Shown one piece after another: positions 3,395 to 44,785 of a stretch of DNA of 64,000 nucleotides. Both the position numbers and the translations under genes were made by a program. The DNA is from Escherichia coli (GTDB taxonomy: Bacteria > Pseudomonadota > Gammaproteobacteria > Enterobacterales > Enterobacteriaceae), in NCBI RefSeq assembly GCF_003019035.1, contig NZ_CP027447.1. One strand, written 5' to 3'. The first letter of the stretch is position 1; each line of letters starts with the position of its first letter. The notes beneath the pieces were generated by a model that saw only the letters and a program-made list of their open reading frames with translations, searched no databases and had not been told where the DNA came from.

Positions 3395-4936
3395 ATGCAA
3401 TATTTAAAAAAACGCTTTTCTTTGATTGAACTGAATGTGTTTATCCCAGCAATATTATTTATTGCGGTAATCATTCTGTGTTTGACGATATATCCACAAG
3501 ATACCAGCCGGTATATAAATAAAATACATCATTTTTTAACCTGGGAAATGGGCGGGATTTTTCTGGTCATGACTTTTCTGGTTGTACTTTGTTGTCTGTG
3601 GCTGGCCTTCTCACGTTATGGCGATATCTTGTTAGGTCAGTCGGGAGAAAAGCCTGACTTCAGCTTGTTAACCTGGCTTGGACTTATTTTTACTTCTGGA
3701 ACGGGGGGCAGCTTGTTATATCTGGCCTCTGTAGAGTGGATTTGGATCATTCAGCAACCGCCTTTTGGCGCGGCAGCAGGAAGCGCTCAGGCTGCTCGTT
3801 GGGCCTCTGCTTATGGCATGTTCCATTGGGGGCCGTCCGCATGGGCATGGTATCTGATTTGTGCCGTTCCCATTGGTTGGTTTATGCATGTTAAGAAAAC
3901 GAACTCATTAAAGGTCAGTGATTTATGCCGTGGGTGTCTGGGGGCACGTGCTGATGGTTTTTGCGGGCATTGTGTGAATTTTTTCTACATGTTTGGTTTG
4001 CTCGGCGGCGCGGTAACGTCTCTGGCGCTGGGAACGCCGATGATTTCTGCCGTATTTTGCCATGTGTTCCATCTGGATCCTGCCGGGCAGTTTATCAATG
4101 TCATGGTTATTTTTATCTGGACGCTAGTGCCATTATTAATTCTCTTTTTTGGACTTAAAAAAGGTGTGGCATGGGCCAGTAACTGGAATATTCGTGCCGA
4201 TATTTTTATGCTACTGGCAATACTGATTTGTGGACCGACAGCTTTTATACTTAACCAATCAATTGATGGTTTCGGCCTGATGCTGCAAAATTTTGTAGCG
4301 ATGAGTTTAAGTACCGATGCTATTGGTCGTAGCGGATTTCCACAGATGTGGACCGTATTTTATTTTTCATGGTGGGTCGTGTATGCCATCCCATTCGGTT
4401 TATTTATCGCCCGTATTTCAAAAGGAAGGACGATCCGGCAATTGATTGTATGTGGAACTCTGGCAGGTTCATTGGGATGCATGGTTTTTTACATGGTACT
4501 GGCTAATTTCGGCTTATCGTTGCAGACAACTCATGTCATCGATTTTGTTCCCATACTTAACGAACAAGGGCGAGGCGTTGTCGTTTCTCGTTTACTGGAG
4601 CAGCTACCCGCAAGTCAGGTGTTTTTGGTTGCTTTTGGGGCTATAGCATTAATTTCATATATTACCGGACACTGTACTGTGGGTTATGCCCTCGGTTTTG
4701 CGACGCAAAAACGGGCAGATAGTGAGAGTGAACCGGCATTCTGGAACGTGGCATTTTGGTTGATTATGACCGGAATCGTCGCCATCACACTCTATCTTCT
4801 TGATGCGCAAAGTCTGCAACCGCTACAAACGGTCTCTATACTGGCCGGACTACCGCTTTGCGGCGTAGTGTTTATTTTATTGAAGAGTTTTTTGACACAG
4901 TTTGCGGCTGAAGAGAAAACCGCGAGAGATGAATAA
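3395..4936 (+). CDS. BCCT-family (betaine/carnitine/choline-type) transporter
   Basis: Polytopic membrane protein with Trp-rich segments (GPSAWAWYL, WWVVYAIPFGLFIARISKGRTIRQ) characteristic of BCCT carriers. Start set at the ATG at 3395 (MQYLKKRF), preceded by CAGGAG; the track ORF from 3251 is an unlikely N-terminal extension. Confidence 0.7.
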   Translation: MQYLKKRFSLIELNVFIPAILFIAVIILCLTIYPQDTSRYINKIHHFLTWEMGGIFLVMTFLVVLCCLWLAFSRYGDILLGQSGEKPDFSLLTWLGLIFTSGTGGSLLYLASVEWIWIIQQPPFGAAAGSAQAARWASAYGMFHWGPSAWAWYLICAVPIGWFMHVKKTNSLKVSDLCRGCLGARADGFCGHCVNFFYMFGLLGGAVTSLALGTPMISAVFCHVFHLDPAGQFINVMVIFIWTLVPLLILFFGLKKGVAWASNWNIRADIFMLLAILICGPTAFILNQSIDGFGLMLQNFVAMSLSTDAIGRSGFPQMWTVFYFSWWVVYAIPFGLFIARISKGRTIRQLIVCGTLAGSLGCMVFYMVLANFGLSLQTTHVIDFVPILNEQGRGVVVSRLLEQLPASQVFLVAFGAIALISYITGHCTVGYALGFATQKRADSESEPAFWNVAFWLIMTGIVAITLYLLDAQSLQPLQTVSILAGLPLCGVVFILLKSFLTQFAAEEKTARDE

Positions 4937-4991: not shown

Positions 4992-6134
4992 TTAACTCAG
5001 GACTGCATGAAAATACCCTGCCAAATTTTCTCCGAGACGAATTAAATTATTTTCCCCCTGACTCAGCGCGGTGGGTAAATCACAAGGACCATTGACGACG
5101 GAAAAACAGGCTTCGATTCCACACTGGCGTAACTCATTCAAATCAAGTTGATCATCGATATACCCGGCAATTGCGATAACCGGAACGCCCATCATCTGGG
5201 CGATTTTGGCCGCCCCCACAGGTGCTTTGCCATTCAGGCTTTGACGGTCTAATTTACCTTCACCGACAATCGCCAATGCTGCATATTTTAAATGTTGGGT
5301 ATATTGAATCGCTTCCAGCACGAGCGAAATACCCGGTTGTAAGCGAGCATCGAGAAAAGCCATCAAGGCCGCGCCAACGCCGCCAGCCGCCCCAGAACCG
5401 GGTATCGTATCGACTTCTTTACCACAACAACGGTAGATGCAACGGGCATAGTTTTTCATTCCCTGTTCCAGTTGCTCAAGGTTGTCAGCACTGGCCCCTT
5501 TTTGTTGAGCAAAAACCCGAGTCGCGCCGTTATCGCCGGTTAGTGGGTTGGTGACATCACAGGCTGCAATAAATTTCACATTTTTCAATCGTGGATCGAG
5601 GTGCTGTAAGTCAATGTGGTGAATTGCCGCCAGCCCCATCCCATTAACGGAGACTGATTGCCCTTCGGCGTCTGTAAACGATGCGCCAAGTGCCGACATC
5701 AACCCAATACCGCCATCATTTGTAGCACTGCCACCCAGGCATAGAATAACGGTATCAATATTGTGTTCCAGGGCGGCGAGAATAAGTTCGCCAGTGCCAA
5801 ACGACGTCGTATAAAGGGGAGAACGCTGGACAGGAGAAACCAGTTCCAGCCCTGAAGCTTGTGCCAGTTCTATCACTGCGGTGGTTTGGTTGCCTAAAAT
5901 ACCGTATTGCGCATGTATTGATTCTCCAAGCGGTCCGGTGACTTTTTTAGTGTAAAACGTACCGTCAGTCGCATGAATGAGTGTTTCGAGCGTGCCTTCG
6001 CCGCCGTCAGCCACGGGCAAACACACCAGTTGGCTGCCAGGCAGGACCTTGCGCCAGCCGGTTGCCAGCGCTTCGGCGACTTTCCATGCGGGAAGGCATT
6101 CTTTAAAGGAGTCGGGGGAGATAACTATCTTCAT
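4992..6134 (-). CDS. Glycerate kinase (GlxK/GarK family)
   Basis: 380-aa ORF beginning MKIVISPDSFKECL... with GGSATNDGG and AAGG motifs typical of glycerate kinases; last gene of a gcl-hyi-reductase-kinase operon on the minus strand. Confidence 0.85.
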   Translation of the reverse strand: MKIVISPDSFKECLPAWKVAEALATGWRKVLPGSQLVCLPVADGGEGTLETLIHATDGTFYTKKVTGPLGESIHAQYGILGNQTTAVIELAQASGLELVSPVQRSPLYTTSFGTGELILAALEHNIDTVILCLGGSATNDGGIGLMSALGASFTDAEGQSVSVNGMGLAAIHHIDLQHLDPRLKNVKFIAACDVTNPLTGDNGATRVFAQQKGASADNLEQLEQGMKNYARCIYRCCGKEVDTIPGSGAAGGVGAALMAFLDARLQPGISLVLEAIQYTQHLKYAALAIVGEGKLDRQSLNGKAPVGAAKIAQMMGVPVIAIAGYIDDQLDLNELRQCGIEACFSVVNGPCDLPTALSQGENNLIRLGENLAGYFHAVLS

Positions 6135-7113: not shown

Positions 7114-7896
7114 TTAAAATTGAGTCTCGTTTTTTAGCCAGCGTAGACTTTCAGTCGTTGTCGTAGATGGAATATATTCGCAACCAATCCATCCCTGATA
7201 ACCAATCTGGTCTATATAATTTAACAACCACGGGTAATTAATTTCTCCCGTCCCTGGTTCATGACGCCCAGGGTTATCGGCTAATTGAATATGTCCAATG
7301 TTATTCAGGTTGTTTTTGATTGTTGTAGCAATATTCCCTTCCATGATTTGCATATGATAAATATCGTATTGGTAGCGCAAATCAGGATGTTTTACATCAT
7401 GAATAATATTGAGAGCTTGTCTGGTATTGTTAACAAAAAAACCGGGAATATCTTTTGTATTAATGGCTTCCAGAACTAACTTTATCCCATGAGAAGCCAA
7501 TTTATCTACCGCATAGCGCAAATTTTCGACCAGTGTTTCATGACATTGTTCATGCGAATAACCACCTGGATGTTTTCCTGCAAGGCAATTAACTTGTGAA
7601 CAATTAAGGGCCAATGCATACTCTATTGCCCTGGAAACGCCCTCCTGAAATTCTTTTGCCCGACCAGGATGACATGCAATACCCCGTTCACCCTCTTGCC
7701 AGTTACCCGCAGGAAGATTAAACAGAACCTGCGTCAGATTATGTTGATGCAGTTGCGAAACTAACTCATCTGCAGAAAAGTCATAGGGGAAAAGATACTC
7801 AACGCCGTGGAATCCTGCGTGACTTGCCTGTGCAAAACGTTCAATAAATGGATACTCGGTAAAGAGCATAGATAAATTTGCTGCAAACTTTGCCAT
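7114..7896 (-). CDS. Hydroxypyruvate isomerase
   Basis: 260 aa; conserved Hyi blocks (ANLSMLF, GERGIACHPGR, LVENLRYA, QYDIYHMQIMEG, GTGEINY); paralog of K-12 Hyi. Confidence 0.85.
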   Translation of the reverse strand: MAKFAANLSMLFTEYPFIERFAQASHAGFHGVEYLFPYDFSADELVSQLHQHNLTQVLFNLPAGNWQEGERGIACHPGRAKEFQEGVSRAIEYALALNCSQVNCLAGKHPGGYSHEQCHETLVENLRYAVDKLASHGIKLVLEAINTKDIPGFFVNNTRQALNIIHDVKHPDLRYQYDIYHMQIMEGNIATTIKNNLNNIGHIQLADNPGRHEPGTGEINYPWLLNYIDQIGYQGWIGCEYIPSTTTTESLRWLKNETQF

Positions 7897-7908
7897 AATC
7901 CTGTTTCC

Positions 7909-9648
7909 TTATAAATCGAGAATTTCTTCAAATTCTGTGACTTTATTAATGTCAGGTCCCATAGCGATATTAGTCACGCGTTCAGTAATAATTTCCACAA
8001 CAACAGGTACGTGAAATTCGTCACGCAAACGCTGGGCTTCTTGCAGTGCAGGCGCAATATCCTGTGATGCGAATACGCGAATCGCTTTACATCCTAATCC
8101 TTCAACCACAGCTTTATGATCAACGCCATAACCATTAATTTCTGGAGCATTAATATTTTCAAATGACAGTTGAACGCAATAATCAATATCAAATGCACGT
8201 TGTGATTGACGAATCAAACCAAGATAAGCGTTGTTAAGTAAAATATGGATATACGGAAGATTAAATTGTGCGCCGACGGCTAATTCTTCAATCAAGAATT
8301 GAAAATCGTAATCACCGGATATTGCCACAACGGGAACAGATGGATCAGCTTTTACCGCGCCCAGTGCTGCGGGCATTGTCCAGCCTAGCGGCCCAGCCTG
8401 ACAGGCATTAATCCAGTGGCGTGGGCGGTAAACATGTAAAAATTGGTTTGCGGCGATTTGCGCCAGACCAATTGTCGAAATATAGCGTGTCTCCGGTCCG
8501 AAAACCTTATTCATTTCGTGATACACGCGCTGCGGTTTAATTGGATTGCAGTCAAAGTCTGAACGACGAAGCATTGTGCGTTTACGCTCGGCACATTCGG
8601 CAATCCAGCGACTGCGGTCTTTCAGTTCTCCACGTGACTTCATATCACGGGCGACCTGAATAAATAGCGTTAAGGCGCTTTCAGCATCAGAAACAATGCC
8701 CAGATCCGGCGCAAATATCCGGCCAATTTGTGCAGGTTCGATATCAACATGAATGAATTTGCGGCCTTCGGTGTAGGTCTCAATGGCTCCGGTATGACGG
8801 TTTGCCCAACGGTTACCGATACCAAAAACAAAATCGGAGGCCAGATAACTGGCGTTACCATAGCGATGACCCGCCTGACATCCCATGCGACCAATCATTA
8901 GGGGATGATCATCTGATAATGCGCCCCAACCGCGTAAGGTTTGAATGACGGGAACGCCAGTTAACTCGACAAACTCACGCAACAATTCACTCGCTTCGGC
9001 GTTAATAATGCCACCGCCAGCGATGATGACGGGCTTTTCGGCGCCATTTAGCATTTCTAATGCGCGTACGGCCTGGGCCCGTGTTGCCTGAGGTTGCCAG
9101 GGGGTTAGTGGCTGATAGAGATCGATATCAAACTCAATTTCGGTCATCTGAACATCAAAAGGGAGATCTAAAAGAACCGGGCCAGGGCGGCCTGAACGCA
9201 TTTCCCAGAAGGCTTTCTGGAATATCCCCGGCAACTGACCCGCTTCGAGAATTGTGCGAGCCATTTTGGTTACTGGCGTGGCGATAGCCTCAATATCGAC
9301 GGCCTGGAAATCTTCTTTATGAAGTTTTCCTACGGGAGCTTGACCAGTAATGCAGAGAATAGGAATGGAATCCGCGGAGGCGGAATAAAGCCCCGTAATC
9401 ATATCAGTGCCCGCAGGGCCTGATGTGCCAATACACACGCCAATATTGCCATTCTGACTGCGGGTGTAACCTTCAGCCATATGCGAGGCGCCCTCAACAT
9501 GACGGGCCAGAATATGATCAATACCGCCTGATTTTTTCATCGCGGCATAGAGTGGGTTGATTGCTGCGCCGGGTACACCAAAAGCAACGCTAATGCCTTC
9601 TTTTTTCAGTATTTCTACTGCAGCTTCGATTGCACGCATCCTCGCCAT
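7909..9648 (-). CDS. Glyoxylate carboligase (tartronate-semialdehyde synthase), ThDP-dependent
   Basis: 579 aa; colinear with K-12 Gcl ([20 protein letters not shown]..., [43 protein letters not shown]) but clearly diverged, so a second gcl-type gene rather than the canonical locus. Confidence 0.88.
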
Positions 9649-37807: not shown

Positions 37808-38146
37808 TTAGCGTGGCGTTTTGCTACTAATCACCCCAATAAAATCCTGCACCTGCTTTTGTTTACGCGCCGACAGCTTGCACACCTGGCGCAGCGACAG
37901 CATCAGTTCGCTCTCTTCGGCGGCGGGTGGTTGGGCGGTGAGGACAATACAGCCTTCCATCACTTTGACATCTACCGCCGTGCCGGTGGCAAAACCGGCG
38001 GTTTCCAGCCACTGACCTTTCAGGGTGATGGCGGGAATACGGCTGTAATCCGGGTAGCGACTCGCATAACTCACGGTTAATTGACGGTTATTTGCCGGGG
38101 AGACTTCTGCTTCGAACGGTTGTGCAATAGAATGCGTGTCAGTCAT
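37808..38146 (-). CDS. symE: SOS-induced toxin SymE (type I toxin-antitoxin toxin, AbrB-fold)
   Basis: 112 aa, [52 protein letters not shown]... matches E. coli SymE; lies at the distal end of the hsd cluster as in K-12. Confidence 0.85.
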
Positions 38147-38216
38147 GATTACTATTCCTTAGAAATAGGGATTGTGATTAGCGGTGCGGGTGTGTTGGCG
38201 CACATCCGCACCGCGC
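38140..38216 (+). ncRNA. symR: Putative SymR antisense sRNA (antitoxin RNA for symE)
   Basis: Assigned by position only: in K-12 SymR is transcribed antisense across the symE start and 5' UTR. A TAGAAT -10-like hexamer lies just upstream inside symE on the + strand, and a 9-bp-stem hairpin (GCGGTGCGG ... CCGCACCGC) occupies the predicted 3' part. Ends are approximate. Confidence 0.4.
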
Positions 38217-38223
38217 TAAATAC

Positions 38224-38239: not shown

Positions 38240-38360
38240 TAAATATGGGGAAAGTCCAGCTAAAAATAGAAAATAATAAAAGCGTTACTGGAAAGATCTG
38301 GAAGAGAAATTAACGTTAATTCAGAATGGCCGGATAACAAAGTGTATCCGGCCTTCATAA

Positions 38361-41300
38361 TTAGTTTAAAACACTCATATGATGTTCTTTAAAATTCTCT
38401 GCCTGTGCCAGCACTCCCATATAAACATCATCATTCGCTACTGGCGGGAACTTATGCTTGTGTAGAAGAAGAATAAGTTCAACTTTTAGTTTCGCTTTAA
38501 TATCATCGCGCTTACTCCAGTCAGGATATTTCGATGTGTTGTCAACCACGCTTTTCATCTCTTTTGCCAGTGACAGCATTTTTTCATCGTCATAGGTGAA
38601 CTGATATTTATCGCGCATATGAGCAAGAATGTCGAAAAACGCTTTTTCTTCAATATCAATACCTAAATCGGCCCATGTGCCCATTTCGGTTTTAATATCA
38701 TAGATAATATCGGTCATTTCCTGACTGAATGTATCGAATTCTTCACCGTTGAGTACATCATCTTCTCGCCGCTCATTATAACGATCTATAATCGCCTGGA
38801 AGCGGCGGGTGAAGTTAATCCCTTGCAACTGGTTCACTTTCTTGAAGTCGCTGATCGCTTTTTCCAGTAATTTTTGTAATAACTGGATCTTTGTTGCCGG
38901 AAGTTTGATCTTGTTAATTCGCGCCAGATAATCTTCGTCAAAAATATCGATGGATTCCGCTTTTTTATCGCCAAGAAAATAAATTTCTTCTACGCCATCA
39001 GCTTTTAGCGCTTCTGCAATCATTTCACGAACGCGTGCATTCATCTGGGTGACATCCGGTGCGTCACCTTTCGTCAGTTTGAAAACAATTGAACGAACAG
39101 CAAGATAATAGTGAATATGATCACGTTCTGTCTGTGATAGTGCTTCACTGCCGCAGCAGACGTCGTAGGCGGCTTTCATGCGTTTAACCAGTCCCATAAA
39201 ACGACGTTCAACTTTCTGGGTACGCAGAACAAATTCCGCCGCGCGGTTGAGGCAGGATAATTGCGCTTGTGGCTCACCACTAAAATAATCCCGACTGTCA
39301 AATTCGTAAAAGACTTGCCCCAACAAATCGAGATGGTTTTTAACTTCTATTACCGATTGCTGAATATCTTCAAAGTTGGTGGCATCAATGCGGGAATACA
39401 TTGCCAGTGCCTGGTTCATCTGACTTTTAATGCCGATGTAGTCCACCACTAACCCTTTACTTTTGCCTTCCAGTTTACGGTTAACGCGAGAAATGGTCTG
39501 GATAAGATTATGTTTTTGTAAGGGTTTATCAATATAGATGGTATCCAGTTCCGGGACGTCGAAACCAGTCAGCCACATATCAACAACAATGGCAATTTTG
39601 AAATTCGATTTAGCGTTTTTGAACTGCTTATCCAGCTCTTTACGATATTCTTTTGTGCCCAGTAAATCATAAAGCGCCTCGTCGTCATCTTTACCGCGCG
39701 TCATGACCATCTTCACCATTTCTGAAGGCGGTAACTCTTTCTGCTCCTGTTCCGTCAGGACGACGCCATCGGGGGCTTGCTTCACTTCAAACCAGGTAGG
39801 GCGAATAGCTTTAAGCTGGCGGTAGAAATCCCAGGCAATTTCACGGCTGGCACAAACAAACATGGCTTTGCCTTTTACGGTGGAACCTTCGGCTACGCGT
39901 TTTTCATAATGTTTAGCAAAATCTTCCGCGAGGGCTTTTAACCGATCTTCATCACCCAGTACCGCATTCATGGTTGCGGTGGCTTTTTTGCTTTCGTCGA
40001 TTTGCCACTCATTGGTGCCTGCGTTTGCGCACTCTTCGTAATACTTTTCGACTTCTTCCAGTTTGCTGGAGTCCAGGATCACTTTAGCCGCACGGCCTTC
40101 GTACACGATGCGTACAGTGATTTCATCCTGAACGGATTCGGTCATGGTGTAACTGTCGATCACCTCACCGAAGACATCGAGCGTCGCGTCAATCGGTGTG
40201 CCGGTAAAGCCAACATAGGTGGCGTTTGGCAGTGAATCGTGCAGGTATTTCGCAAAGCCATAAGTTTTGCGCACTTTTCCGCTTTCTTTATCGACGATGA
40301 CTTTCTGGTCGAGGTTAACCTGGCTGCGATGTGCTTCGTCTGAGATGCAAATGATATTGCTGCGTTCAGAAAGGAGTTCGGTGTCTTCGGTGAATTTATG
40401 GATCGTTGTCAGGAATACACCGCCACTATTGCGTCCCGCCAGTTGATTACGCAAATCTTCACGGCTGATAACAGGAACGATGGTGTCGTCGCCAATGTAA
40501 TTTTTGGCGTTGCACATTTGCGCAGAAAGCTGATCGTCCAGATCGGTGCGGTCGGTGATCAAAACAATGGTCGGGCTGGCAAACTCCACGCTCTTCATCA
40601 AAAGACGCGTTAAAAATTGCATGGTGTAACTTTTGCCACAGCCCGTTGCGCCAAAGTAGGTGCCGCCTTTACCGTTACCGAAAGGTTTACGCGCTTGCTT
40701 GATGCTGTAATAGAGTTTGCGGGCGGCATAGTACTGCGGATATCGGCAGCAAATTTTTACTTCGTGCTTAGCTTTATCCGGGAAGCAGATAAAGTTTTTA
40801 ATCACATCCAGCAGACGTACCGGATGAAACAGCCCCTGAATCATTGAGTGCAATGACGGAATTCCGTCCTGTTCACGGTTTTCATTACCGGTGACTTTGC
40901 GCCATGAGTAAAAATATTCATAGGGCGCAAACAGGTTGCCCATCCGGTTATTAACGCCATCGCTAATAATGCAGAGCGCGTTGTAGATAAACAGTTGCGG
41001 AATATCCCGGCGGTAGCGTTTACAGAGCTGCTTCCAGGCATCACCTATACTGGCTTCCTGCTCGCGCACCGCGCTTTTAAATTCAAAGACGACCAATGGC
41101 AGACCATTGATATAGAGAATGCCGTCAGGAATACGAGTCTGATTATCTTTGCCGGAGATTTTAAGCTGGTTAACAATCTTAATCCGGTTAAGCGGCGGAT
41201 TAATATAGGAGGGCGGGAGTTCTGCCGCCTGTTGCAACGGGACATCTTCGGCGTCAAATATCTGGCGCAGTGCGGCAGGTAGATGCCGGGTGTCGAGCAA

Positions 41301-41624
41301 TTCAATATAGAGATCTTTTTGTTGCCGATCGTCGCGTTTGAACAGAAAACCATTTGCCAGCCAGCGACAAAATGTTTTGTTGCTTTCATAAAGATCGGAG
41401 GCCGGAAGCGTGGTGAACTGTTTGATCAGTCGCTGAATCTCTTCTTCAGTAATGCCATCAGGCTGGTAGCGTGCCGCTAAATAATGACGGAGATCGTCTT
41501 CGATAATGACCTGATCGAGACTTGAACGAGGGACATTATCGCCGATCAGGTGTTGATATCCCTGATCCTGTAATAGTTCAATGATCGCTTGTTCTAATTT
41601 TGCTTCACTGAAAGAGAGACTCAT
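38361..41624 (-). CDS. hsdR: Type I restriction enzyme R subunit (HsdR), not EcoKI-type
   Basis: About 1087 aa; conserved nuclease motif (VVFEFKS), DEAD/DEAH helicase Walker A (GATGCGKSYTM) and helicase motifs. Start set at the ATG (MSLSFSEAK...) preceded by GGAG; the track ORF begins at an upstream TTG. The sequence and length differ from K-12 EcoKI HsdR. Confidence 0.88.
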   Translation of the reverse strand: MSLSFSEAKLEQAIIELLQDQGYQHLIGDNVPRSSLDQVIIEDDLRHYLAARYQPDGITEEEIQRLIKQFTTLPASDLYESNKTFCRWLANGFLFKRDDRQQKDLYIELLDTRHLPAALRQIFDAEDVPLQQAAELPPSYINPPLNRIKIVNQLKISGKDNQTRIPDGILYINGLPLVVFEFKSAVREQEASIGDAWKQLCKRYRRDIPQLFIYNALCIISDGVNNRMGNLFAPYEYFYSWRKVTGNENREQDGIPSLHSMIQGLFHPVRLLDVIKNFICFPDKAKHEVKICCRYPQYYAARKLYYSIKQARKPFGNGKGGTYFGATGCGKSYTMQFLTRLLMKSVEFASPTIVLITDRTDLDDQLSAQMCNAKNYIGDDTIVPVISREDLRNQLAGRNSGGVFLTTIHKFTEDTELLSERSNIICISDEAHRSQVNLDQKVIVDKESGKVRKTYGFAKYLHDSLPNATYVGFTGTPIDATLDVFGEVIDSYTMTESVQDEITVRIVYEGRAAKVILDSSKLEEVEKYYEECANAGTNEWQIDESKKATATMNAVLGDEDRLKALAEDFAKHYEKRVAEGSTVKGKAMFVCASREIAWDFYRQLKAIRPTWFEVKQAPDGVVLTEQEQKELPPSEMVKMVMTRGKDDDEALYDLLGTKEYRKELDKQFKNAKSNFKIAIVVDMWLTGFDVPELDTIYIDKPLQKHNLIQTISRVNRKLEGKSKGLVVDYIGIKSQMNQALAMYSRIDATNFEDIQQSVIEVKNHLDLLGQVFYEFDSRDYFSGEPQAQLSCLNRAAEFVLRTQKVERRFMGLVKRMKAAYDVCCGSEALSQTERDHIHYYLAVRSIVFKLTKGDAPDVTQMNARVREMIAEALKADGVEEIYFLGDKKAESIDIFDEDYLARINKIKLPATKIQLLQKLLEKAISDFKKVNQLQGINFTRRFQAIIDRYNERREDDVLNGEEFDTFSQEMTDIIYDIKTEMGTWADLGIDIEEKAFFDILAHMRDKYQFTYDDEKMLSLAKEMKSVVDNTSKYPDWSKRDDIKAKLKVELILLLHKHKFPPVANDDVYMGVLAQAENFKEHHMSVLN

Positions 41625-41690
41625 ATCGCGCTCCAACCCTGGCTAATTTCTGGTAAGCATTCCCGTATCAGTAGAAAACCTTACCAGAAA

Positions 41691-41710
41691 GCCCCTGATT
41701 TTACAGGGGC
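41691..41710 (-). terminator. Hairpin immediately downstream of hsdS (possible attenuator/terminator before hsdR)
   Basis: 7-bp perfect stem GCCCCTG/CAGGGGC with a 6-nt loop, about 8 nt after the hsdS stop, followed by T-rich sequence on the minus strand; an adjacent 10-bp inverted repeat (TTCTGGTAAG ... CTTACCAGAA) lies in the hsdR leader. Confidence 0.35.
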
Positions 41711-41718
41711 AAAATGCG

Positions 41719-43113
41719 TTATGCAGTTTCTGTATCGGTGTTGAGATCCGGAAGATCTTCCCGGGATAGCTCACCGGAGATGAGTTTCGGGAGCAGGGTG
41801 TCGCGGAGGTTGCTCAGGACTATTTGATTATTATTATGTGACTTGTCAATCCAAGGCATAACGATATTATAAAAAGTATTAATTATTTCAACATCTGGCA
41901 TAACTACATGTTCAGCCTCAAGAAAATATTTTGTCTGGAAGTTAGCGATTCCTGTACTTTGGTTTTGGTATTCCCACATTTTTCCATCGTTATATATTTT
42001 ATTGAGGTGTAAACTAATTATTAGCCCTATCTCTATAGATAACGGCTCAAACTTGCGACAAAAACTAGCAGGTTCAATAATACCCCCTAATCGACTTATA
42101 ATCTGTTCAGTCATGAAAATTGAACGGCCAGTTGACTGCGTTGGACTTCCTCCTGAAACTTCTATTATAATATCACCATTATTAATTTTTCTTTTTTCGA
42201 GTTTTTTGGGTTCTACCCATCTACATGGGGCAGAACTCATTTTCCCTGAAATTAACTCCGGGATATCAGTACCGCGCACTATCACTGCTTGAATTGTATG
42301 CTTTTCATCTCTGGAATCACTCCCCCAGTCACCACCAATTGTATTTTTTAGTAAACTATTAACATTTGAAAACTTCCAACCTTTAGGAATTAAACCTAAC
42401 TCCGTTTCTTCAAATTCACTTGGGAAAAGCGAGCGGATTTCCGCCGGAAGCGGTTTAAAATCTGTACTATTACGTACTTTTTGACGCAACTCGGCACGAG
42501 ATTGCAGAGCCTCCGGGATTGGATTTCCTGCATCCAGAGCGTTATCAACCACCGGATCAAAATCCACAAACCAGGATTTGAACAGGGTTTGGGACATTTG
42601 TTCTAATGACTTATTTATTACTTCATTGGATTTTAGCTTACTAAATATAAGAGTGTTTGTTTTTGCGATATGTTGGCAATATTTATCTGGTGCAAGATTA
42701 AATTCATAATCTAATATGGCTGTTTTATCACCCCTTGGCATTTTGGTGCCTTTGGATGTTAAAACAGTATGTTCGATGAATTTTTGATCCATTAATACTG
42801 ATAGAATATAATTAGAATTAATATTTTTTTTAGGACGGAATACAATTACATCGTTAGAACAGCCACCAGTTCGATCTGCAAGCCATAGTTTTTTAAAATA
42901 TGTTCTGATATTCGAGAATAAAATATCTCCAGAATGAAATTTTGTTATTTTCCCTGTGCTAGGTTTACTATTTGCTATTGATATACCTCCAAAATTGGTA
43001 AGCATATTTTCAGTTGATATGTAATCGCAAAGACTAATTTGCGATACATCAACTTTAGTAGTGATGATATCTACAACTTCTTTAAGTTTTATTTTCTCCC
43101 ACTTACTCCCCAT
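41719..43113 (-). CDS. hsdS: Type I restriction-modification specificity subunit (HsdS), two target-recognition domains
   Basis: Start MGSKWEKIKLKEV... overlaps the last 11 nt of hsdM (ATGGGGAGTAA); AT-rich coding sequence with two variable regions separated by a conserved central segment, as in HsdS proteins. Confidence 0.85.
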   Translation of the reverse strand: MGSKWEKIKLKEVVDIITTKVDVSQISLCDYISTENMLTNFGGISIANSKPSTGKITKFHSGDILFSNIRTYFKKLWLADRTGGCSNDVIVFRPKKNINSNYILSVLMDQKFIEHTVLTSKGTKMPRGDKTAILDYEFNLAPDKYCQHIAKTNTLIFSKLKSNEVINKSLEQMSQTLFKSWFVDFDPVVDNALDAGNPIPEALQSRAELRQKVRNSTDFKPLPAEIRSLFPSEFEETELGLIPKGWKFSNVNSLLKNTIGGDWGSDSRDEKHTIQAVIVRGTDIPELISGKMSSAPCRWVEPKKLEKRKINNGDIIIEVSGGSPTQSTGRSIFMTEQIISRLGGIIEPASFCRKFEPLSIEIGLIISLHLNKIYNDGKMWEYQNQSTGIANFQTKYFLEAEHVVMPDVEIINTFYNIVMPWIDKSHNNNQIVLSNLRDTLLPKLISGELSREDLPDLNTDTETA

Positions 43114-44722
43114 AACCCAGCACCTCCAGATTCTGGCGAATCGCACGATCCAGTTCTTCCGCCTGCTTCATCTGCTCAAACAACGTCTTCGACAATTCGC
43201 GCATTTTCGTCTCAAATGCCACGCCGTCCTCTTCCTGCTCGGCTGCACCTACATAGCGGCCCGGTGTCAGAACGTAGTCGTTATCTTTAATGTCTTGCAG
43301 GGTCGCAACTTTGCAGAAGCCAGCCTGGTCTTCATATTTTTCCAGCTTGCTGTCACCACGCGCAATCCGTGCAGCCAGTTCTTCCGGCGTACTGCGCCAG
43401 GCATGGTAGGTATCGGCGATGGTGGCAATATCTTCCGTTGTTAACTCTTTAGTTGTGCGGCTAATCATGGTGCCGAGGTTACGCGCATCAATAAACAGCG
43501 TCTCGCCCTGACGATCACGATAACCTTTGGCCGGATCGGCAGCCTTCGATTTGGTCATAAACCATAAACACACCGGGATCTGCGTGGTGTAAAACAACTG
43601 ACCTGGCAGAGCGATCATGCAGTCAATCAGATCATTTTCGATCATCTGTGCACGGATCTCGCCTTCACCGCTGGTGTTAGAACTCATCGAACCGTTTGCC
43701 AGCACAAAACCTGCTGTGCCGTTAGCCGACAGCTTGGAGAGCATATGCAAAATCCAGCCGTAGTTGGCGTTACCGGTTGGCGGCATACGATACCCAGCAA
43801 AACGTGGGTCTTTGGTTAATTCGGCTTCATTACGCCAGTCTTTCAGGTTGAACGGCGGGTTCGCCAGAATGTAGTCGGCTTTCAGGTCCGGGTGCTGGTC
43901 GCTAAAGAAAGTGTTTGCCGGTCGTTCGCCGAGGTTAGCTGAAAGACCGCGAATGGCGAGGTTCATTTTTGCCAGTTTATACGTCGTGGCAGTCAGTTCC
44001 TGACCATACAGCGCGATATCACGGCTTTTACCCTGATGGCTCTCGACAAACTTCACCGACTGCACGAACATCCCCGCCGAACCGCAGCACGGGTCATAAA
44101 TTTTGCCCTGAAAGGGTTCGAGCATTTCAGTTAACAGCGTAACCACACATTTAGGCGTGTAGAACTCACCACCGCCTTTGCCTTCAGTTGCGGCAAACTT
44201 ACCGAGGAAGTATTCGTAAACGCGTCCGACCAGGTCTTCTTTCGATAACGTTTCAACGTCAGTTTCGTGTGCCAGCGTTTCGATGTTGTCGATGGTATCA
44301 ATCAGTGACGCCAGTTTTTTGGTTTCCAGATTCTGACGGCTGAAGTAGTTGTCTGGCAGCGCGCCTTTCAGGGTTGGGTTACGTTTCTCAATGGTCGAGA
44401 GGGCGGTGTCAATACGAACCGCAATATCGTCCTGTTTGGCATTTTGTTTGATAAACGACCAGCGCGCCTCTTCCGGCAGGTAGAAAATGTTGTCCTGCTG
44501 GTAGAACACTTCCATCTCAAGGAAGTCAGCTTGCCCATCGGCAATCATTTTTTTGCGGCGTGCTTCAAACTTATCGCTGATGAATTTCAGGAACACGAGG
44601 CTCAACACCACGTGCTTGTATTCGGAGGACTCAACGCTACCGCGAAGCTGGTTTGCTGTATCCCATAATGTTTCTTCAAAGCCTTTCTTTGCTTTGGCTT
44701 TTTTAGTTGGTGCTTTGGCCAT
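43103..44722 (-). CDS. hsdM: Type I restriction-modification N6-adenine DNA methyltransferase subunit (HsdM)
   Basis: 539 aa; AdoMet-binding region (YDPCCGSAGMF) and catalytic NPPF motif (LANPPFN); the N-terminus (MAKAPTKKAKAKKGFEETLW...) differs from K-12 EcoKI HsdM. Confidence 0.9.
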   Translation of the reverse strand: MAKAPTKKAKAKKGFEETLWDTANQLRGSVESSEYKHVVLSLVFLKFISDKFEARRKKMIADGQADFLEMEVFYQQDNIFYLPEEARWSFIKQNAKQDDIAVRIDTALSTIEKRNPTLKGALPDNYFSRQNLETKKLASLIDTIDNIETLAHETDVETLSKEDLVGRVYEYFLGKFAATEGKGGGEFYTPKCVVTLLTEMLEPFQGKIYDPCCGSAGMFVQSVKFVESHQGKSRDIALYGQELTATTYKLAKMNLAIRGLSANLGERPANTFFSDQHPDLKADYILANPPFNLKDWRNEAELTKDPRFAGYRMPPTGNANYGWILHMLSKLSANGTAGFVLANGSMSSNTSGEGEIRAQMIENDLIDCMIALPGQLFYTTQIPVCLWFMTKSKAADPAKGYRDRQGETLFIDARNLGTMISRTTKELTTEDIATIADTYHAWRSTPEELAARIARGDSKLEKYEDQAGFCKVATLQDIKDNDYVLTPGRYVGAAEQEEDGVAFETKMRELSKTLFEQMKQAEELDRAIRQNLEVLGYGE

Positions 44723-44785
44723 GATGAACTCTGTTCAGATAAATTGGGTCGCTATTGTAATGGTAGAGACGGCAGATTTCGCCCT

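Follow-up and report, generated by a model that had tools for sequence, protein, structure and literature searches.

A pair of conserved hairpins between hsdS and hsdR in a putative StySBLI-type restriction-modification cluster of Escherichia coli

Leaky intrinsic terminators are known to lie between cistrons, as at the rplL-rpoB attenuator, which has an RNase III site next to it, and at T1 between rpsU and dnaG. That intergenic structures protect mRNA and that segments of one operon decay differently is likewise established in E. coli (Dar and Sorek 2018, PMC5927463). Type I restriction-modification enzymes are a family whose regulation is called little studied in the relevant passages of a review, which also give the layout of EcoKI as Pres, a terminator after hsdR, and then Pmod (PMC12707154). 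That hsdR has its own promoter is a textbook statement, attributed to Murray 2000 in a passage of PMC10030836.

Here we describe two hairpins, numbered in the order of transcription, that lie between hsdS and hsdR on the minus strand of a 64,000-nt stretch of E. coli DNA (contig NZ_CP027447.1; "the window" below). Like the rplL-rpoB and rpsU-dnaG attenuators, this gap has a GC-rich hairpin and a U-run between co-oriented genes, the downstream product being the one needed less. At rplL-rpoB a second, processed helix lies nearby, as hairpin 2 does here, and that attenuator is to our knowledge the closest architectural analogue. Unlike in those two cases, the U-tract here is short and interrupted, the helices abut within 94 nt, and termination and processing are predicted. 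With malE-malF and other instances of differential decay the locus shares a stable, conserved structure just downstream of the genes expected to be more abundant, and, as in the structures of PMC5927463, the stem sequence is conserved above the neutral rate. However, most of the structures in PMC5927463 lie inside the downstream coding sequence, whereas this element is intergenic, and its single copy and cassette-specific occurrence set it apart from the malE-malF element, which is a REP repeat. As in EcoKI, a hairpin or terminator parts the R unit from the M/S unit, with independent dosing of the nuclease as the rationale. In contrast to EcoKI, the gene order is reversed to M-S-R (as in Types IC and ID), no recognisable hsdR promoter stands behind the hairpin, and the second conserved hairpin has no described EcoKI counterpart. 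The cassette in the window appears to be the same as that of EcoMII (strain EC958) and StySBLI. The searched text of the EC958 study covered EcoMII methylation specificity and the hsdM transcript level only and yielded no description of intergenic hairpins (PMC4659465). Our literature searches, whose scope did not extend to the original Type ID gene-layout papers, found no description of this hsdS-hsdR gap. With hairpin 1 as an apparent weak transcription stop, the pair would be an ordinary kind of operon tuning, one undescribed so far for the Type I enzyme family.

The gene calls of the first-pass annotation, with hsdS upstream and hsdR downstream on the minus strand, are borne out by Pfam and by RefSeq annotation of a near-identical locus (L001; 99.8% identity to the window over the 551-nt query). 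The methyltransferase subunit gene hsdM (43103–44722, minus strand; open reading frame with Pfam N6_Mtase at 5.7e-106 and HsdM_N; annotated as subunit M in L001) is the first gene of the hsdM-hsdS-hsdR unit. The specificity subunit gene hsdS (41719–43113, minus strand; Pfam Methylase_S) takes its start from RefSeq at L001 (CDS 7838-9232, 1395 nt) and with that start overlaps hsdM by 11 nt; its open reading frame in the Pfam run was 41719-43146. On the minus strand it ends ...GAA ACT GCA TAA, the stop lying at 41721-41719. The third gene, hsdR (38361–41624, minus strand), encodes the 1087-residue restriction/translocase subunit (Pfam HSDR_N, SWI2_SNF2, T1R_D3-like and T1RH-like_C). We take ATG 41624 as its start because a Shine-Dalgarno sequence, GGAG (41631–41634, minus strand), stands six bases upstream and RefSeq annotates the same ATG at L001. 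The gap then measures 94 nt (41718-41625). The 82 bp given earlier had come from a mechanical ORF finder, which chose an in-frame TTG upstream, at 41636.

A Mrr-type nuclease is encoded upstream of hsdM (Pfam). The 63-nt mrr-hsdM gap (44723-44785, minus strand) lacks a hairpin; a possible weak promoter, GCGAAA-17-TACAAT, can be seen there by eye about 30 nt upstream of the hsdM ATG, below the scan threshold. Some E. coli hsdS alleles (L002, at 6040-6100, and L085) have an earlier TAA, by a change from GAA, so that HsdS is 13 residues shorter. The gap to hsdR in these alleles is 133 nt, and the extra 39 nt stay conserved.

The gap sequence was found in 861 of 5426 complete E. coli genomes (~16%). 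Its place is invariably chromosomal and between hsdS and hsdR, the median being one copy per genome, and the flanks are matched at 95-99% in 826 E. coli genomes. One plasmid record, a large E. coli replicon, also has it. Carriers of the cassette include ST131 and ATCC 25922, and across the gap ST131 genomes do not differ from the window (100% identity). A dispersed repeat of the REP, BIME or MITE kind was considered and rejected, given a median of one place per genome and an arm motif with no second exact copy in the window. In RefSeq the neighbourhood of L001 reads btsT-yjiX-yjiA-brnAT-mrr-hsdM-hsdS-hsdR-symE-yjiS-yjiR, which is the Immigration Control Region. Three subunit genes in the order hsdM-hsdS-hsdR, placed in this region and adjoining mrr, make up a Type ID layout. 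The published description of EC958, an ST131 strain, includes the statement that EcoMII is an hsdM-hsdS-hsdR operon adjoining mrr and that its HsdR is 92% identical to that of StySBLI, the founder of Type ID (PMC4659465). The review's passage on the Immigration Control Region lists IA, IB and ID as the Type I families found there (PMC12707154). Because of these two statements and the ST131 gap identity, we treat the locus as a StySBLI-type (Type ID) mrr-hsdM-hsdS-hsdR cluster. The assignment is indirect: members of one family share more than about 70% HsdR/HsdM identity with StySBLI, and the link here runs via EC958 and the ST131 gap match.

Read along the minus strand, the gap consists of CGCATTTT after the hsdS stop, hairpin 1, hairpin 2 and then TTAGCCAGGGTT-GGAG-CGCGAT-ATG. 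Hairpin 1 (41691–41710, minus strand) is GCCCCTG/TAAAAT/CAGGGGC, or GCCCCUG-UAAAAU-CAGGGGC as RNA: seven base pairs, six of them G-C, around a 6-nt loop, with a dG of about -13.7 kcal/mol. The 7-bp-stem hairpin that had been reported after hsdS is thus present on the minus strand at 41710-41691, although it begins 8 nt past the TAA and not immediately after it. The U-rich tail, UUUCUGGU (41683–41690, minus strand; 5 U in 8), also supplies the first bases of the 5' arm of hairpin 2. Both the inverted-repeat search and the fold gave hairpin 2 (41647–41690, minus strand). Its outer stem is a perfect 11-bp helix (41690-41680 with 41657-41647) formed by the arms TTTCTGGTAAG and CTTACCAGAAA, 22 nt apart; the earlier description, a 10-bp repeat with a spacer of about 22 nt, had the spacer right and the repeat one base too short. 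Inside the outer stem are a 2x2 internal loop, an inner stem (41677-41673 with 41664-41660; UUUCU/GGGAA) and an apical loop (41672-41665), the full minus-strand sequence being TTTCTGGTAAG-GT-TTTCT-ACTGATAC-GGGAA-TG-CTTACCAGAAA. Hairpin 2 follows hairpin 1 with zero linker and ends 12 nt from the hsdR Shine-Dalgarno sequence, which is unpaired in the predicted fold. Its 16-19 bp are interrupted by one or two internal mismatches, and it is predicted to be able to stack on hairpin 1.

Folding the minus-strand transcript, the check proposed in the first-pass annotation, predicted both hairpins and a gap more stable than its shuffles. The 94-nt gap folds at -37.6 kcal/mol, whereas its dinucleotide shuffles give -23.7 +/- 3.3 (z = -4.2) and none of 200 was as stable; with short flanks (116 nt) z is -4.9. 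By itself the inverted repeat of hairpin 2 is unremarkable: the 64-kb window has 25 such repeats (at least 10 nt, within 40 nt), and it ranks 21st. With its 7 pairs (6 of them G-C), 6-nt loop and TTTCTGGT tail, hairpin 1 matches a terminator-like pattern, and its stem is of the kind found in intrinsic terminators (GC-rich, 5-14 bp, small loop). Taken alone, the pattern match is weak evidence; the scan returned 7 sites in 4.5 kb, with 4.9 expected. The 5 U in 8 of the tail UUUCUGGU satisfy the scan pattern, yet only three are consecutive, and in variant L090 (metagenome Ga0182747_1010261, 3727-3821) the run is down to UU. No Rfam 15 family reached its gathering score in the gap, where the best, isrK, scored 18.1 bits (threshold 50). 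The sole match in the whole-window Rfam scan was symR, outside the gap.

Two other structured features of the window lie near the far end of hsdR. The symR antitoxin sRNA (38141-38217, plus strand; RF01809, 93 bits) is antisense to the 5' end of symE, and its terminator stem is the 14-nt inverted repeat at 38181-38214. A 9-bp hairpin, GGCCGGATA/TATCCGGCC (38328-38353, minus strand), begins 8 nt past the hsdR stop, the same offset as that of hairpin 1 from the hsdS stop. It has a weak tail, AUUCUGAAUU, and a REP-like look, and the terminator scan gave no call for it.

Several other roles for the gap were tried and set aside. Sequestration of the Shine-Dalgarno sequence by hairpin 2 was rejected, as a complementary segment is absent and the Shine-Dalgarno sequence is open in all folds. 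A long-range helix between the hsdS stop region and the hsdR AUG is weak in the single-sequence fold and is not predicted for the Superficieibacter variant, and the alignment fold retains only 3+2 marginal pairs of it. A mini-ORF, ATGCTTACCAGAAATTAG, in the 3' arm of hairpin 2 has its ATG in some E. coli alleles only, with ATC or ACC elsewhere. Function on the plus strand was also rejected, since neither hairpin has a U-run there and the wobble pairs form on the sense strand only.

Constraint on the gap was measured as mean pairwise differences per site across 29 distinct variants. These comprised E. coli alleles, Superficieibacter electus (found by scanning one genome per species), assemblies with 91-93%-identical HsdR, and 22 metagenome variants, collected with a search pattern that was anchored in the ribosome-binding site and start region only and so left the hairpins outside it. 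The stem of hairpin 1 had 0.029 differences per site and its loop 0.131. For hairpin 2 the outer and inner stems had 0.063 and 0.020, and the internal and apical loops 0.244 and 0.309; the spacer from the hsdS stop to hairpin 1 had 0.124. Fourfold-degenerate sites in the first 900 nt of hsdR differed at 0.32 per site across the same set, and at ~0.5 between the window and the Superficieibacter/L088 clade. By this yardstick the stems evolve at roughly 6-20% of the neutral rate and the apical loop of hairpin 2 is neutral. Both stems are strongly conserved and under purifying selection.

The same numbers bear on the idea that the hairpins have no function, having been passively inherited (for example as insertion remnants), and look conserved through recent horizontal transfer. 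Three facts would fit such an origin: the cassette moves among Enterobacteriaceae, inverted repeats of such a size abound in the window (25 of them), and hairpin 2 is absent outside the StySBLI clade. However, loops and spacers have diverged by 0.12-0.31 per site and stems by 0.02-0.06, and because this contrast sits inside the same 94 nt, recent transfer of the whole cassette is ruled out as its cause. The element is also single-copy, with no dispersed repeat, and hairpin 1 shows a compensatory change. We had reason to disfavour lack of function already and give it very little credence.

The pattern of substitutions supports hairpin 1 as a helix in sense-strand RNA. Its stem is invariant in 27 of the 29 variants, and in two lineages, L090 and L101, the closing pair has changed on both sides, from G-C to C-G. 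L090 has also gained a C-G pair at a position that is T·T in the reference, and it carries a U-G that pairs on the sense strand only. The tally for hairpin 1 is thus one pair with a two-sided change (2 sequences) and one wobble. Hairpin 2 had no two-sided (compensatory) change among the 29 variants. Four of its pairs have wobble changes, including G-C to G-U in 8 sequences, and three have breaks; at the U-G of the inner stem, U-G is the commonest state (28/29). About eight independent single changes break a pair, with a hot spot at position 41684 (G to T, G to A, or the partner C to G). In L090 three uncompensated changes have nearly abolished hairpin 2 (fold z -0.3), with hairpin 1 kept. Overall, 97.6% of cells were paired. 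The covariation score was 0.042 against 0.034 for shuffles, a level reached by 2 of 500; this is a small signal from one pair among related sequences. When natural variants were set against random mutants with equal numbers of substitutions, the natural form was the more stable in all 6 comparisons on hairpin 1, in 19 of 25 on hairpin 2 and in 24 of 26 on the two combined; these counts are not independent, because the sequences are related. Hairpin 2 is clearly constrained, and a long helix robust to single mismatches would fit the data as well as two conserved sequence blocks.

Alternatively, hairpin 2 could be a DNA palindrome that serves as the operator of a dimeric protein and not an RNA structure. 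An operator would account for arms conserved in sequence without compensatory change, for the tolerance of single half-site changes and for a spacer that varies freely between the arms. The arms, however, are 17-18 nt each and ~33 bp apart from centre to centre, unlike typical operators. The conserved inner-stem U-G is asymmetric as DNA and paired in sense-strand RNA, and the frequent C-to-T change seen in 8 variants yields G-U. By Pfam and RefSeq annotation no cassette-specific transcription factor is encoded nearby, and we know of no controller protein for Type I systems. We therefore rate an operator as highly improbable.

A standard scan for sigma-70 promoters (-35/-10 with 16-18 bp spacing) found none on the minus strand of the gap. 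A permissive scan returned a single, extended -10-like candidate with 7-8 of 13 matches: TGGTAAGGT, containing the weak motif TGnTAAGGT (41678–41686, minus strand) in the 5' arm of hairpin 2, with 3/6 in the -10, the TG present and 3-4/6 in the -35. The motif resembles the galP1 extended -10. With no recognisable sigma-70 promoter in the gap, hsdR therefore probably relies on read-through, and passage through hairpin 1 is the most likely course of its transcription judging from the sequence.

The alternative is that hairpin 1 ends the hsdMS transcript efficiently and that hsdR is transcribed from TGnTAAGGT (41686-41678) as its own weak extended -10 promoter. The -35 would then lie in the loop of hairpin 1 and the start site near 41672, and the palindrome would be incidental or an operator. 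Such a promoter would fit the classical two-promoter Type I layout and is compatible with attenuation at hairpin 1, as the two do not exclude each other. Reviews hold that hsdR usually has its own promoter (PMC10030836), and EcoKI has a terminator between its two units according to the corresponding section of PMC12707154. The motif is conserved, and the sole hot spot of the 5' arm falls on its "n", which varies more than any other stem position and can be G, T or A. In L090, two of the three changes that break hairpin 2 keep or improve the motif: the TGn is retained and the hexamer becomes TAAAGT. Against this, the match is weak and appears under permissive settings only, and by our estimate roughly 7% of gaps as long as this one would have a TGnTAnnnT by chance. 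Initiation near 41672 would also give a transcript without the 5' arm, and the conservation of the 3' arm and inner stem, which is just as strong, would go unexplained. Because both arms are conserved, a promoter alone does not explain hairpin 2. Relatives with clear terminators, moreover, also lack a downstream promoter. On balance we consider a separate hsdR promoter unlikely, while keeping it in view. Another promoter-like site, TTGAAA-16-TAATAT with an overlapping exact TATAAT (41864-41891, minus strand), lies within hsdS, ~150 nt before its stop codon, where this allele has its AT-rich variable 3' target-recognition region. Because it is allele-specific, it is unlikely to be a conserved hsdR promoter.

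The junction between hsdS and hsdR was also compared across 80 loci encoding the same HsdR family, and its architecture is highly variable. Many distant members (among L015-L074) have an upstream open reading frame that overlaps hsdR by 1, 4 or 8 nt, and others in that range have unrelated genes between hsdS and hsdR. In gammaproteobacterial loci with hsdS directly upstream and a gap of at least 60 nt, an unrelated strong hairpin starts within ~20 nt of the hsdS stop. Such hairpins were found in Edwardsiella (L009, L011), Aeromonas (L010, L014), Proteus (L012), Enterovibrio (L017), Vibrio mimicus (L021) and Shewanella (L076), with dG values from -12.7 to -20.5. Clear U-runs follow several of them, including those of L012 (GGCGGUUUUUCUUAU), L021 (CCGUUUUUAACG) and L017. 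In two loci from Pseudoalteromonas, whose gaps are shorter (48 and 63 nt), there is no hairpin. A permissive promoter scan from the hairpin to the start codon in the gaps of the other genera gave nothing convincing. The post-hsdS hairpin thus recurs by position and not by descent. The genome-wide scan contained no relatives with HsdR identity between 92% and 73%, and hairpin 2, which is not traceable beyond the StySBLI clade, is by these comparisons confined to it. The first-pass annotation had made conservation in related hsd loci a check on its proposal. Both elements are kept within the StySBLI clade; outside it, only the position of a hairpin is shared and hairpin 2 is absent. In Vibrio sp. 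T20 (L007, 1985-2095) a near-perfect hairpin of ~110 nt fills the 249-nt hsdS-hsdR gap (fold z -6.5); in appearance it is closer to an inserted element of the MITE type than to a terminator.

Our favoured reading, held tentatively and as somewhat short of probable, is that the gap is a cis element on the hsdMSR mRNA, in which a leaky terminator or 3'-protective hairpin and a leader stem-loop lower hsdR relative to hsdMS. Transcription would enter upstream of hsdM, and possibly from mrr. Hairpin 1 and its short U-tract would act as a weak intrinsic terminator and could in addition block 3' exonucleases once endonucleolytic cleavage has occurred; in both cases the hsdM-hsdS message would be commoner and longer-lived than the message that reaches hsdR. 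Polymerases that read through would transcribe hairpin 2, a long stem-loop upstream of the hsdR Shine-Dalgarno sequence. This stem-loop would most likely set the processing or stability of the hsdR segment, as a substrate for RNase III or RNase E or as a 5' protective structure. The outcome would be an R subunit made in smaller amounts and later than the M2S methylase. We infer the termination, the read-through, the processing and the effect on subunit ratio from the sequence.

The idea that the hairpins form a partial terminator or regulatory RNA structure uncoupling R from M and S gains from the constraint on the stems, from the compensatory swap and terminator-like pattern of hairpin 1, from the positional recurrence and from the lack of a recognisable promoter. 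The part that concerns hairpin 2 fares less well, since compensatory changes are missing there and a link to the ribosome-binding site is not evident. A "regulatory RNA structure" there is a guess, and a role in processing or stability is the most economical guess. The poor U-tract, the uncompensated changes in hairpin 2, its loss in L090, the small covariation signal and the textbook view that hsdR is transcribed from a promoter of its own all count against the favoured reading. Because the U-tract of hairpin 1 is short and interrupted, termination there would be weak at most and may be negligible.

A weak U-tract would also suit control that is purely post-transcriptional. There would then be no termination: hairpin 1 would block 3' exonucleases, hairpin 2 would provide an entry site for RNase III or RNase E, and differential decay of a full-length hsdMSR mRNA would set the ratio of R to M/S. 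The abutting helices could stack into ~25 bp, and hairpin 2, at 16-19 bp with internal mismatches, resembles known RNase III substrates. Protection of the malE-malF type and widespread differential decay within operons are documented (PMC5927463). However, hairpin 2 is shorter than the canonical two-turn substrate of RNase III (near-continuous dsRNA of ~20 bp or more), and the true U-runs behind the hairpins of relatives (L012, L017, L021) point to termination. We regard a mechanism without any termination as rather improbable.

A further possibility, which we put forward as a long shot, is restriction alleviation at the RNA level in Type ID systems. Hairpin 2 would then serve either as an RNA switch or as the site recognised by a host or mobile-element factor, for instance an RNase III- or protein-dependent gate, and would delay or throttle HsdR synthesis on entry of the cassette into an unmodified host or upon DNA damage. 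If true, such a gate would be distinct from the ClpXP proteolysis of Types IA and IB and from the assembly control of Type IC.

If the element is only a leaky terminator, the arrangement would be ordinary operon tuning. A compact conserved element at this junction offers a concrete, easily mutated handle on how M-S-R-ordered systems keep the nuclease below the methylase, a question that bears on the establishment of the cassette in new hosts and on the engineering of hard-to-transform clinical strains.
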